Below are positions 312-4,189 of a stretch of DNA of 64,000 nucleotides, piece after piece. The position numbers were made by a program, and so were the translations under genes. Position 1 is the first letter of the stretch, and the number at the start of each line of letters is the position of its first letter. Source of the DNA: Gemmatimonadales bacterium (GTDB taxonomy: Bacteria; Gemmatimonadota; Gemmatimonadetes; Gemmatimonadales; GWC2-71-9); contig JBBCJC010000001.1 in the NCBI GenBank assembly GCA_037189525.1, positions 320,001 to 384,000 on the forward strand. The letters run 5' to 3'. The notes beneath the pieces are model-generated. The model worked only from the letters and a program-made list of their open reading frames with translations. It was not told where the DNA came from and did not search any database.

Positions 312-1787
312 ATGTGGTCTTCCACCCTTACTCGAATCGTCGCGTCCCTCACCGTCGCGGCGGGTCTGCCAGCCGGTGTCGCGGCGGAACAGCGCGCCGT
401 CACGGCATCCACCTCCCCCGCATCGACCGTTGACTCGGCGGCCGTGCGACGGGCCAAGGCCGTCGACGCGCTCTTCACCCGCTGGCATACCCCCGATTCG
501 CCCGGCGCTTCGGTGGCGGTGATCTACGACGGCGCCGTGGTGCATGCCAAGGGATATGGCATGGCCAGCCTGGAACACGGCGTCCCGAACCAGCCGCACA
601 CGGTCTTCGACATCGCGTCGGTGTCGAAGCAGTTTGGCGCCTTTGCCATCACGCTGCTCGAGGCCGACGGCCGCCTGTCGCTCGACGACGACGTCCGCAA
701 GTACGTGCCCGAACTTCCCGACTTCGGACACGTCATCACCATTCGGCATCTGGTCCATCACACCTCCGGCCTGCGGGACTGGCCCGGCACGCTCCGGATG
801 GGCGGCTGGAGCTACGAAGATGTGATGTCCTTCGAGCAGATTCTGCGAATGGCCTACAACCAGAAGACGCTCAACTTCAAGCCCAACGACGAGCATGCCT
901 ACTCCAACACCGGCTACAACGTGCTGGCCGAGGTGGTCCAGCGGGTGTCGGGACAGAGCTTCAGGGAGTTTACCGAGCAGCGCATGTTCAAACCGTTAGG
1001 CATGTCGCGGACCCATTTCCACGACGACCATCGCGAGGTGGTCCGTGACATGGCCGAGTCGTACTCCCCCGATCGCGATCGTGGCTATCTCCATGTGACC
1101 TCGAATCTGACCGCGCTGGCGTCGAGCTCGCTCTTTACCACGGTCGAAGATCTGGCCAAGTGGGTGGGCAACTTCGAGACGGCCTCGGTGGGCGGACGGC
1201 GGGTCATCGACGCGATGCACCGCCGAGGCGTCCTCAACGCGGGCGACACCATTCCCTACGCCTTCGGGCAGAGCAAGGGCCAGTATCGCGGACTGGAGAC
1301 CTGGTCGCACGGCGGATCGTGGGCCGGCTACCGGAGCGTGCTGACCCGGTTCCCCGCGCAGCGGTTTGCGGTCATCATCCTCGGCAATACCTCCGACATG
1401 GCGCCGGGAACGCTCGCCAATCAGATCGCCGACATCTATCTGGGCGACAAACTCGGCCAGGCCGTTGCACAGTCTTCTCCCTCTCCGTCGCGCGAACAGA
1501 CGGCGCCGTGGAGCCCGACGGCCGCCGAACTTCGGGAGTTCGTGGGCGAGTACCGCAGCGACGAGTTAGAGACCTCATGGCACATCCGGCTGGTCGACGG
1601 CAAGCTGGTCTCGAGCCATTTCCGCCGGGGCGATTCGCCGTTTGTGCCGGCCGGCAAAGACCAATTCCGGTCGCAGGGTCCCGGCGGCGAGATCACCTTC
1701 CAGCGGGATCGCCGCGGCAAAATCACCGGGTTCGTGAGCAACCAGGTCCGGATCCGCCACTTCCTCTTCCGGCGGGTAGGCAACTGA
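312..1787 (+). CDS. Serine hydrolase, beta-lactamase class C-like, with signal peptide
   Basis: SVSK (SxxK), YSN and HGG motifs. ATG at 312 is followed by a signal-like N-terminus. Confidence 0.9.
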   Translation: MWSSTLTRIVASLTVAAGLPAGVAAEQRAVTASTSPASTVDSAAVRRAKAVDALFTRWHTPDSPGASVAVIYDGAVVHAKGYGMASLEHGVPNQPHTVFDIASVSKQFGAFAITLLEADGRLSLDDDVRKYVPELPDFGHVITIRHLVHHTSGLRDWPGTLRMGGWSYEDVMSFEQILRMAYNQKTLNFKPNDEHAYSNTGYNVLAEVVQRVSGQSFREFTEQRMFKPLGMSRTHFHDDHREVVRDMAESYSPDRDRGYLHVTSNLTALASSSLFTTVEDLAKWVGNFETASVGGRRVIDAMHRRGVLNAGDTIPYAFGQSKGQYRGLETWSHGGSWAGYRSVLTRFPAQRFAVIILGNTSDMAPGTLANQIADIYLGDKLGQAVAQSSPSPSREQTAPWSPTAAELREFVGEYRSDELETSWHIRLVDGKLVSSHFRRGDSPFVPAGKDQFRSQGPGGEITFQRDRRGKITGFVSNQVRIRHFLFRRVGN

Positions 1788-1953: not shown

Positions 1954-3441
1954 TCAGCCCGGTTCGGACCGAGCCTGATCGACTGAGTCCGCAGCAAGCA
2001 CATCAATCGTCGCGGCGTAGTTACCATCCGGCTCCCGGATATGCTCGGCGCCGAACCGGGCCCATTGGAGCGGGGTCGCTTGATGCTCGTTGTCGCGGAT
2101 GCCAAGATCGGCGCCTGCCCACATCAGCATGGCCACGACCTCATCCCGGCCGGCAATCGCCGCGTGATGCACCGGCGTCGCGCCAAACTCGTCCAGGCCG
2201 TTGACCGGGAACCCGGCGCGGAGGCAGGCTCGGACCACCGCTACGTCTCCACGACGGGCGGCATCCCTGCACAGATGCAGATCTTCCGGCTCCAACTGCC
2301 GGAGCAACTCGGGCGACGCCAACCGTTCGGCGCGATCGGTATCGCCTGATGCGCACGCCTCGAGCAGCTGATCTACCGCCGAAAGCGGAACCGGGGTGGC
2401 GCCTGCCTGCTCGAGGATAGCGGCAAGCGCCTCCTGCCCGCTCCGACGGGCCAAGAGCCAGGCAGACCGGCCATCGGCTCGCGCGGCGCGCGGATCCGCC
2501 TCATGATCGAGCAGCAGCCGGATAGTCTCGGGACTTTGTCCGCGCCGCACGGCCACGTGCAGGGCCGTTTCGCGTTCGCCACCTGAGCGTACGTCCGGAT
2601 CGGCGCCGTGGTCCAGCAACCAGCGCAGCCCGCGACCCACCGCCGGATGGCGTTCGATATCCCAGTACCTGAGCAGGAAGTACAGCGGCGTATTGCCCCA
2701 ATCGCCGGTCTGGTTCAGATCGACGTCGAATTCGAGCAGCAACGCGAGCGCCTCCTCGTGAAAGCGCTCCGCGGCATGAAAGACCGACTCTCCGTCGGTC
2801 GGCCTGGCCCCCGCCTCGAGCAACATCCGCGCGATCCCGGGCACGTTCCACAGGCCGGTCACCGCATAGAGCGCCGGGAGGGTGTACTGTGTCGCCGTGA
2901 CATTGGGGTCGGCGCCGCGATCGAGCAGAAGCCTGGCACACGATGCAAGCTCCGCATTGAGCGCCGGGCTGCGGCCGTGAAAGGGCGAGAAGCACAACCA
3001 GCCCAGCGGCGACGAGGGCGGCGTCCCTTCCTGCCGTCGCACCGCATCGGGATCTGCATCGAGCAGATCGCGCAGCTCGCGCACCCGGCCGAGCGCCGCG
3101 GCCACGCCTGGACTGATCGCGACGATTCCCGGTTCCGTCGCCAGAATCTGCTCGGCCCGAGTCCGGTTGGGCTCCAGCACGGCATTCAGGAACGCGGTGA
3201 CCGCGTCATCGACCCCGCGAGACGCCTCCACTCGCGTGCGCAGCCGCGCCCAACTCGCAAACCCGTACTCCCTGGCCACCACCCGCTGGGCCTCGGTCAA
3301 CCGAAGGTCGGTACGTGGTCCCAGCACGGCCTCGACCCGCGCCACCGCTTCCGGTGCGCGCGCAAGAAAGGTGCGATGCAACGCTTTGGCTTCGTGCTTC
3401 AGGTGATCGAGGTGCGGACGTGCGGGAAGGTCCTTCGGCAT
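1954..3441 (-). CDS. Ankyrin repeat protein with N-terminal LPARPxLxxLKxxAK...AREYGFASW domain
   Basis: Repeated ankyrin motifs (LLDRGADPN, GNTPL, ETALHVAVRRG, GATPVHHAA). SD AAAGGGGG lies upstream. Confidence 0.9.
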   Translation of the reverse strand: MPKDLPARPHLDHLKHEAKALHRTFLARAPEAVARVEAVLGPRTDLRLTEAQRVVAREYGFASWARLRTRVEASRGVDDAVTAFLNAVLEPNRTRAEQILATEPGIVAISPGVAAALGRVRELRDLLDADPDAVRRQEGTPPSSPLGWLCFSPFHGRSPALNAELASCARLLLDRGADPNVTATQYTLPALYAVTGLWNVPGIARMLLEAGARPTDGESVFHAAERFHEEALALLLEFDVDLNQTGDWGNTPLYFLLRYWDIERHPAVGRGLRWLLDHGADPDVRSGGERETALHVAVRRGQSPETIRLLLDHEADPRAARADGRSAWLLARRSGQEALAAILEQAGATPVPLSAVDQLLEACASGDTDRAERLASPELLRQLEPEDLHLCRDAARRGDVAVVRACLRAGFPVNGLDEFGATPVHHAAIAGRDEVVAMLMWAGADLGIRDNEHQATPLQWARFGAEHIREPDGNYAATIDVLAADSVDQARSEPG

Positions 3442-3454
3442 GGCAACCCCCTTT

Positions 3455-3558
3455 CAGTAACGCCCGGTGTCCGCGTCGTTCGGGCCGAAAGAAGGTCGTC
3501 GATGTCCGGCGTCACTCCCAGGTGGACTGAGTCCTTTCCGCGGACCGGATGCGCCCTG
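3455..3558 (-). ncRNA. Candidate structured cis-regulatory 5' leader RNA of the ankyrin gene
   Basis: On the minus strand CAG-GGCGC-AU-CCGG-UCCGCG pairs with CGCGGA-CA-CCGG-GCGUU-A-CUG. Internal stems are GGAC/GUCC and GCCGGA/UUCGGC. The structure lies between the promoter and the SD. Confidence 0.55.
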
Positions 3559-3572
3559 ACACGCAATAGGGA

Positions 3573-3601
3573 AGCTTAGCGCGCGCCGCAGTGCCGGTCA
3601 A
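3573..3601 (-). promoter_or_regulatory. Sigma70-type promoter of the ankyrin gene
   Basis: TTGACC-17 nt-TAAGCT on the minus strand. Confidence 0.65.
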
Positions 3602-3658
3602 ACGACCGGGCAGGAAACCTCGTTATACTGCAAACGACTCGTCGAGGAACCGGAATCG

Positions 3659-4189
3659 ATGTCGCTGACAATCGAGCGTATTGCCACCACTGCTCTGTCG
3701 CAGAGCGCCCGCAACGCCATCCTCTCGCTGTGCAACGAGGCCTACGATGAGGACCTGACCGGGTACCTGAACGATATCGGCCCGGGCGTCCACCTCCTGG
3801 GCCGGGATGGCCCCGATCTGGTCTCCCACGTGATGTGGGTCGACCGCCGGCTCGAGCCCGGCAATCTGCCGTCGCTCAACACGGCCTACGTCGAACTGGT
3901 AGGTACGCATCCGGCGCATCAACATCGCGGCCATGCAACGGCCCTGATGCAGCGTCTGGCCACCGAAATCGAGTCCTATGATATCGGCGCTCTCTCGCCC
4001 AGTGACCCGGTCTTCTATGAACGACTGGGATGGGAGAGCTGGCAAGGACCGCTCCTGATACAAAGCCCGTCGGGAATCGAAGCCTCTCCCGATGAGGCCG
4101 CGATGATCCTCCGTTTGCCGGCCACGCCCTCCGCGCTCGACCTCACTGCATCGCTCGCCGTGAGTTGGCGGCCGGGTGAAATCTGGTAG
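3659..4189 (+). CDS. GNAT acetyltransferase, AAC(2')-I-like
   Basis: TAYVELVGTHPAHQHRGHA (motif A), FYERLGW, and C-terminal WRPGEIW resembling the DWRxGDxW end of AAC(2') enzymes. Confidence 0.8.
   Translation: MSLTIERIATTALSQSARNAILSLCNEAYDEDLTGYLNDIGPGVHLLGRDGPDLVSHVMWVDRRLEPGNLPSLNTAYVELVGTHPAHQHRGHATALMQRLATEIESYDIGALSPSDPVFYERLGWESWQGPLLIQSPSGIEASPDEAAMILRLPATPSALDLTASLAVSWRPGEIW

Follow-up and report, generated by a model that had tools for sequence, protein, structure and literature searches.

The ankyrin gene and its surroundings

The window, meaning the whole 64-kb stretch of DNA analysed here, carries on its reverse strand an ankyrin-repeat gene headed by a promoter-like sequence and a structured leader RNA. 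The features are listed in the order of transcription; the label type A for this leader and the labels type B, C and D used below were coined in the present analysis.

3596..3601 (-): -35-like hexamer TTGACC, 17 nt before TAAGCT
3573..3578 (-): -10-like hexamer TAAGCT, at a position conserved among homologous leaders
3442..3565 (-): structured leader RNA of type A, whole (match to model R1 at 3439-3565)
3558-3555 with 3522-3519 (-): P1, CAGG with CCUG, closing the three-way junction; compensatory pairs
3539..3553 (-): P2, CGC 3553-3551 with GCG 3541-3539; its loop holds the docking strand
3540..3545 (-): docking strand GUCCGC, pairing with 3474-3469; 5' side of the pseudoknot or kissing helix
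3524..3534 (-): P3, hairpin GGAC-UCA-GUCC; compensatory pairs
3496..3518 (-): variable spacer, conserved in neither sequence nor length in the alignment
3487..3495 (-): anti-SD pyrimidine tract CCUUCUUUC, pairing with the SD in the single-sequence fold
3462..3485 (-): P4, GCCCG 3485-3481 with CGGGC 3466-3462; its loop contains the docking partner
3469..3474 (-): docking partner GCGGAC in the P4 loop; long-range pairing across leaders
3447..3455 (-): Shine-Dalgarno sequence (SD) GAAAGGGGG, paired with the anti-SD
3441 to 1954 (-): ORF with ankyrin repeats, 495 aa; the N-terminal peptide quoted previously was confirmed
3223..3441 (-): N-terminal helical domain, aa 1-73, candidate leader-binding module (AlphaFold2 and Glyoxalase_8 homology)
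2089..2628 (-): ankyrin-repeat cargo; best Pfam stretches aa 272-348 and 420-451

The original prediction described a clean TTGACC-17-TAAGCT promoter and a 5' UTR of about 125 nt. The hexamers and their spacing are present, but the consensus is matched at just 8 of 12 positions, and the promoter fell below the threshold of a consensus promoter scan and was therefore not reported there. Among 57 homologous leaders, 21 have a -35 match of at least 4/6 at a spacing of 16-18 nt, and 50 have TANNNT at a distance of 30-35 nt upstream of the docking strand, compared to 5.2 expected from shuffles. Transcription would start near 3566-3564 on the reverse strand. The conserved position of the -10 hexamer in the homologous leaders lends good support to a 5' UTR length of about 124 nt, close to the predicted one. 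One public RNA-library run (share 0.06) provided a single 157-nt contig of depth 2 spanning 3397-3553, which is not counted as evidence because it could stem from DNA carry-over.

The encoded protein matches Pfam Ank_4 above the cut-off (E 6.5e-27), with the repeats in its C-terminal half, and further degenerate ankyrin repeats are probably located upstream of aa 272. Back to back with the leader promoter lies a divergent GNAT acetyltransferase gene (3659-4189, forward strand) with TATACT just upstream of it (3624-3629), and the same GNAT-side DNA adjoins the leader in a genome of the same genus (L004). A convergent gene encodes a beta-lactamase-family serine hydrolase with a weak DUF3471 tail (312-1787, forward strand); no connection between this gene and the leader was seen.

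The N-terminal domain of about 73 aa is predicted to consist of four helices (11-26, 30-40, 48-58 and 64-74; AlphaFold2 pLDDT 89). In 30 aligned domain members, R57 and W64 are invariant and two further positions are always K or R, while the net charge is mildly positive with a median of +3.5. No Pfam family above the cut-off was found for aa 1-73, only a weak match to Glyoxalase_8 (PF20066), which reaches 13.3 bits against a cut-off of 23.7 for the window protein. The relationship to Glyoxalase_8 that had been proposed for this module is nevertheless supported: the E-value of 0.087 for the single sequence contrasts with 97.3% and E 2.2e-11 for the profile-profile comparison of the type A domain with the Glyoxalase_8 N-terminus by hhalign, and 12 of the 30 members match PF20066 at E <= 1, with a best E-value of 1.4e-4. 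An NCBIfam scan of the type A domain yielded only weak PRK05973 matches, and the Pfam scans of window proteins and domain members contained no ANTAR match. In sequence searches against solved structures, the best E-value was 0.16 for type A, and no match at E <= 1 was obtained for type B. Foldseek gave no clear match (best E 3.8), and the highest VIA Z-scores, 4.4 (type A) and 5.3 (type B), lie within the background range. These scores for predicted models point to neither a new fold nor a relative. The top VIA match of type B, 3fyb (DUF1244), recurs below significance in the fold searches, in third (Z 4.2) and first place (Z 5.3). Three unnamed Protein Atlas clusters at 0.87-0.88 are leads only.

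With the type A profile alone, 10,275 clusters at 50% identity were matched at E <= 0.001, and in the best 150 of these library matches the domain begins within the first 25 residues. Decayed second or third domain copies also occur: 104 of 151 proteins (P0002-P0151) have two or more long matches, in a ranking that favours multi-copy proteins. The cargo behind the domain was classified with Pfam for 57 proteins, made up of 46 of the 52 RNA-first proteins (at least 150 aa) and 11 chosen from the 62 domain-first proteins. It consists of ankyrin repeats in 43 cases, other families in seven (WD40, LRR, Clp_N, FliG_C, PNP_UDP_1, DUF6624 and a methyltransferase, one each) and sequences without a match in the remaining seven. 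Tested for a common metabolic theme, the cargo proved to be mixed and mostly of unassigned role.

A docked leader RNA and its coupling to the domain

The upstream regions of the domain loci share one motif. Its alignment comprises 56 motif-filtered sequences upstream of domain homologues, leaving out three non-homologous or truncated loci, one duplicate, one broken copy, one leader with a long insert and those missed by the filter. The consensus consists of P1, P3, P4, the anti-SD:SD helix and a 6-bp long-range helix. Within it, 94.4% of the cells are paired and 15 of 24 pairs show compensatory changes, a level that none of 500 shuffles reached, and slid pairing partners reach at most 52%. For the nested helices of 98 held-out metagenome leaders, the alignment of which was fitted to the model and hence leans towards it, the corresponding values are 96.0%, 13 of 21 pairs and 0 of 500 shuffles. 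The expectation of a conserved and covarying leader RNA is supported by both sets.

Compensatory changes affect 4/4 pairs of P1 in the 56 leaders and 3/4 in the held-out set, and 4/5 pairs of P4 in both sets (86.4% and 97.2% paired, respectively). P3 is paired to 98.2% with 2/4 compensatory pairs in the 56 leaders and to 100% in the held-out leaders. For the docking helix (3540-3545 with 3469-3474), 99.7% pairing and compensatory changes in 3/6 pairs were found in the 56 leaders. P2 is invariant and, despite about 99% pairing (99.4% in the 56 leaders and 99.0% in the 98 held-out ones), remains unproven since it has no compensatory change. Because P2 and the docking helix share two bases, the leader has two alternatives: P2 together with a kiss of 4 bp, or the full 6-bp helix in the absence of P2. 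Comparison of the leaders shows that the 5' three-way junction formed by P1-P3 docks into the P4 loop through a helix of 6 bp, and that an anti-SD paired with the SD makes up the base of this 3' hairpin.

A different fold had originally been proposed, with an interrupted outer stem of about 18 bp closing directly before the SD. Although all 18 pairs can be written in the window sequence, they are absent from its minimum-energy fold, and in the 56 leaders 78.2% of the cells are paired compared to 77.9% after shuffling, with 143 of 500 shuffles reaching the same level. The outer 12 pairs are paired to only 67.8% in these leaders. The inner UCCGCG/CGCGGA helix, paired to 96.4%, is identical with the long-range docking helix and is the part of the stem that persists.

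The window leader alone folds no better than its shuffles (z = -1.0), so that its stability is uninformative. Across the leaders, the native anti-SD:SD duplexes have a mean of -13.85 kcal/mol, compared to -11.59 +/- 0.26 kcal/mol when swapped among leaders. With the docking strands set aside, the predicted probability of an unpaired SD falls from 0.20 to 0.03, and this drop is seen in 50 of 56 leaders. Model R1 finds the leader as its single match in the 64-kb window; the score of 106.2 bits is not independent since the window leader belongs to the training set. No Rfam match at gathering score was obtained anywhere in the window, and around the leader (3300-3700) only chance-level matches with E-values of 2-9 occurred.

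Domain searches were positive for 74 out of 301 genomes from the phylum, a tally that counts the unpublished genome G181, which gave no locus to the analysis, and a further 36 loci came from named genomes. Named type A carriers belong to six phyla, namely Gemmatimonadota, Actinomycetota, Pseudomonadota, Verrucomicrobiota, Planctomycetota and Vulcanimicrobiota, and the closest named homologues are found in Gemmatimonadales (77% over the domain). Cultured bacteria in which leaders were identified include Gemmatirosa kalamazoonensis and Methylosinus sp. C49. The source genome contains a second copy outside the window (L002/L191, G000:C1:609657-), where a leader of 89.7 bits precedes a gene for a 422-aa protein with the same domain at 45% identity over the domain. 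Two leaders and two domains, co-located, are present in this genome. A third model match in the same genome (L192, 25.5 bits) was rejected as a chance match, lying inside a coding frame and lacking the 3' half, and L003 was discarded as a chance protein match.

Starting from the domain, a full leader of more than 50 bits is present at 61 of 64 loci, of which 56 are training loci and five lie outside the training set. Two of the three exceptions have a partial leader (L057, and L029 with the 3' half only), and one has none (L060). In the opposite direction, a scan of metagenomes with the RNA pattern only identified at least 121 loci. Among the pattern matches listed, the domain follows in 105 of the 111 with enough downstream DNA (two duplicates included). 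Three of the six exceptions are chance matches without the 3' half; the others are a 5' half fused into an ankyrin gene, a gene diverging after the domain start and a leader without a gene. When 151 genomes from the phylum were searched with the model, 67 matches in 40 genomes were obtained, and 62 of the 65 evaluable ones precede the domain, the other three being broken leaders. Neither the listed pattern matches nor the 151-genome model search contained an intact type A leader ahead of an intact different gene.

Judged by this co-occurrence, leader and N-terminal domain go together whichever of the two is searched for first, and irrespective of the cargo. The coupling counts include kin and are not independent of one another; together with the mixed Pfam cargo, they support the proposal of a portable unit of RNA and domain attached to varied proteins. 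Since RNA and domain are adjacent, they would be inherited together regardless of function, a point that is taken up below.

Some type A leaders adjoin tRNA genes (L199:913-1260, and upstream of L048, L051, L062 and L067). Two of these tRNA neighbours were found in an Rfam scan of loci, and the other tRNA-like ends were recognised by eye. This adjacency hints at insertion sites.

Sister pairs and known systems

Homologous domains are accompanied by further leaders. Comparing profile with profile, domain homology reaches 97.3% for types A and B, 96.4% for B and C, 95.4% for B and D, and 92.7% for A and D; types A and C are joined through B alone, their direct comparison giving 7%. Model R1 has no match at the type B loci, at seven COG3860 loci or at the three sul1 loci tested. 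As the type A model misses types B and C, these are separate classes sharing one layout. Comparison of the aligned leaders shows that each of the four domain subfamilies has its own leader sequence on this common layout.

Type B is the leader class of Glyoxalase_8 genes in Pseudomonadota (L207-L241) and carries GGUGAA. From 32 Glyoxalase_8 loci, 21 of them flagged by script, 27 were aligned by eye after exclusion of one near-duplicate, one long leader, two leaderless loci and one locus of type D. The docking helix GYYYGC/GCRRRC is paired to 99.4%, with 3/6 pairs compensatory, while P1 (49.6%) and P3 (34.6%) are both poorly aligned. The type B leader had no Rfam match in the loci scanned, and the Glyoxalase_8 genes at L221 and L234 have no visible leader. 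One weak Glyoxalase_8 match carried the Rfam COG3860 RNA (RF02940).

The COG3860 RNA itself constitutes type C (L242-L257). All 13 matches above the cut-off have a perfect 6-bp partner located 41-60 nt downstream in a hairpin loop ahead of the SD. The partners occur in six sequence variants, and swapped partners fit in 0 of 134 cases, compared to 13 of 13 native ones. By this pairing, the Rfam COG3860 model (54 nt) covers only the 5' half of its leader. Twelve of the 13 matches precede a DUF2087-type protein with a homologous N-terminus. At L257 (1501-2598), a COG3860 leader lies before an alpha/beta-hydrolase-like gene without the domain, and a standard copy (L254) is present in the same genome. 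The arrangement at L257 may reflect control in trans or an RNA that is able to work without the domain. On contig G449:C4 (L242, L200), a sul1 RNA with its permease gene is located directly upstream of a COG3860 RNA with its gene, on the same strand.

For type D, which belongs to PRK05973 ('DNA helicase') genes, an own leader was predicted before inspection and found at 7 of 7 loci (L326-L332), a sample of six loci above the cut-off and one frameshifted locus, with none from the unpublished genomes G684 and G492. This leader is a three-way junction with a loop CCCUCC complementary to GGAGGG in the loop of the hairpin that hides the SD, and the docking loop GGAGGG is itself SD-like. The docking helix shows no covariation because it is invariant in this small sample. 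No Rfam match was found for the type D leader. Near other members, a SorX-like sRNA just below the cut-off (L328:1293-1358) and a group II intron fragment (L323:232-349) were observed.

The sul1-type leaders to which the domain had been linked turned out to be a different system. All six RF03058 matches above the cut-off precede genes for sulfate-permease-type membrane proteins of 468-496 aa that lack the domain, and model R1 did not match at the three sul1 loci. Membership of the window leader in sul1 was likewise rejected: RF03058 has no match in the window, and the downstream gene encodes an ankyrin protein rather than a sulfate transporter or a sulfur-metabolism protein. The sul1 motif, described ahead of sulfate transporters in the main text of PMC5737381, measures 56 nt and is unrelated in sequence to the type A leader of about 125 nt, although the latter is likewise a cis-regulatory candidate ahead of varied genes.

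The nearest catalogued relative of the type A leader is the COG3860 RNA (RF02940; Cis-reg, 54 nt). In both, the junction docks into the loop of a 3' hairpin, and the gene that follows encodes a homologous domain at the N-terminus. However, this domain homology is indirect, via Glyoxalase_8, with weak direct similarity; the leader sequences differ, RF02940 has no match to the window leader, and the COG3860 cargo is DUF2087. Glyoxalase_8 shares the helix-loop-helix-GF-x-x-W-x-x-L module, and the leaders of its genes follow the same layout, whereas the type A domain has an LP-x-x-P-x-L motif in front and, in most cases, one more helix, and the leader sequences differ.

In the ribosomal-protein leaders S15 and L20, the leader structure hides the SD and binds the product of its own gene. 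The type A leader resembles such autogenous protein-binding leaders in a conserved 5' UTR structure that overlaps or hides the SD and in a constant tie to one protein module. These are tied to one nucleic-acid-binding gene family, whereas here a dedicated small domain is placed on unrelated cargo. ANTAR is a small helical RNA-binding output domain that is fused to varied sensors and has a cognate two-hairpin RNA; it acts in trans on regulons via tandem hexaloop hairpins, mainly by antitermination. In contrast, the type A RNA is a pseudoknotted junction with an anti-SD, located in cis on the domain's own gene. By analogy, the type A unit would work like the autogenous leaders, is modular like the ANTAR systems and is a member of neither.

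Possible function of the RNA-domain pair

The arrangement of promoter, structured leader and N-terminal domain is consistent with a cis-acting unit of translational control. The small basic helical domain would bind the docked RNA of its own mRNA and stabilise the state in which the SD is hidden, so that free protein would shut off its own translation. We consider it likely, on the comparative evidence, that the domain binds its own leader and controls translation, probably by repression, which appears about twice as likely as activation. A weaker inference concerns the cargo: ankyrin repeats, VOC/glyoxalase, Clp_N, ATPase and other domains could serve as the input, and engagement of a partner or ligand by the cargo would lower the amount of free domain and allow translation to resume. 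Direct binding is the simplest account because the RNA follows the domain and not the cargo, changes with the subfamily and hides the SD, and because the domain has conserved basic residues. Several points speak against this account: the structure searches gave no match to a known RNA-binding fold, the net charge of the domain is only mildly positive, the coupling has exceptions (L060, L029, L257, L221 and L234), and no intact type A leader was found before an intact different gene, as might be expected of a freely diffusing regulator. Since intact type A leaders hardly occur before other genes and the domain keeps to the N-terminus, a cis or co-translational mode is conceivable.

Three other explanations have to be considered. 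The leader could be an orphan riboswitch, in which the junction and the kissing helix bind a small molecule or ion and switch the accessibility of the SD, while the domain serves some other purpose under the same physiological conditions, such as oligomerisation or protease targeting. The riboswitch-like layout, the invariant unpaired bases, the anti-SD platform and the type C leader ahead of a gene without the domain at L257 would fit this. Nevertheless, the RNA follows the domain and not the function of the cargo, four RNA sequences match four domain subfamilies, and it is difficult to think of one ligand that ankyrin, VOC, DUF2087 and ATPase genes would share, which makes a riboswitch improbable. 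An indirect coupling is unlikely as well, by a trifle less so: here, the nascent N-terminal peptide would act on the ribosome or recruit a third factor (a helicase, an RNase or a protease adaptor) that remodels the leader, and domain and RNA would have no direct contact. The N-terminal position of the domain in the best 150 of the 10,275 library matches and the almost strict cis linkage of RNA and domain agree with such a coupling, but the domain is a well-folded unit of about 70 aa in the predicted models, unlike short arrest peptides, and tolerates large loop deletions between its helices, and the RNA sequence varies with the domain subfamily.

Alternatively, promoter, leader and the first 70 or so codons may recombine as one piece onto new genes, with an RNA that works alone, for instance by thermal or kinetic control of initiation or through mRNA stability, and a domain that is not its ligand. 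The adjacency of the two parts accounts for their co-inheritance, the fusion points lie just after the domain, and broken remnants exist (L111, L314, L318 and L320). Adjacency does not, however, account for the retention of both parts. Such a hitch-hiking scenario does not explain why both, unlike the drifting spacer, are conserved over six phyla, why type A leaders do not persist intact before other genes and why the pairing has survived in four diverged subfamilies. We regard it as the least probable of the explanations discussed here. Direct binding of the leader by the domain remains the preferred reading.

A more far-reaching interpretation, towards which we are inclined only tentatively and with slightly more doubt than confidence, is that the four types belong to a superfamily, so far unrecognised, in which RNA-binding domains are matched with cognate pseudoknotted leaders. 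At least four mutually specific pairs would have arisen in it and would act as a plug-in feedback cassette, by which any gene that takes it up limits its own translation. Within this interpretation, the nascent domain possibly reaches back in cis to the leader of its own mRNA and the fused cargo would be the sensor, which would make these proteins one-component regulators acting on their own mRNA.

In the literature covered here (titles, beginnings of abstracts and passages of the papers named below), neither the RNA nor the RNA-domain pair is described. The main text of PMC5737381 (sul1, chrB) mentions no ankyrin, glyoxalase or COG3860, and the same applies to part of the supplements of PMC2864571, which also lacks the core motif. 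The main text of PMC8632094 and the supplements of PMC6429828 contained none of the searched terms in the portions covered. A leader class termed 'protein binding candidate' is defined in PMC11109978, as far as its covered text goes. In the covered part of PMC7113386, the DUF2087 protein BtmL was not pulled down on DNA, and a 5' UTR target is one hypothesis raised by its authors. The type A RNA-domain pair is real, widespread and apparently undescribed, although supplements or subscription journals may contain an earlier description, above all of COG3860.

The RNA-domain pairing would provide a function for a large unannotated domain, which in type A already comprises 10,275 clusters at 50% identity, and for the N-terminal regions of Glyoxalase_8, COG3860/DUF2087 and PRK05973 proteins. 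The COG3860 motif, an orphan in Rfam, gains a candidate ligand, and three leader classes that Rfam does not contain are added. Should the pairs be mutually specific, they would represent orthogonal protein-RNA switches of natural origin, about 70 aa and 125 nt in size, for synthetic feedback circuits. Overall, the pattern points to an uncatalogued, portable means for bacterial proteins to limit their own production.
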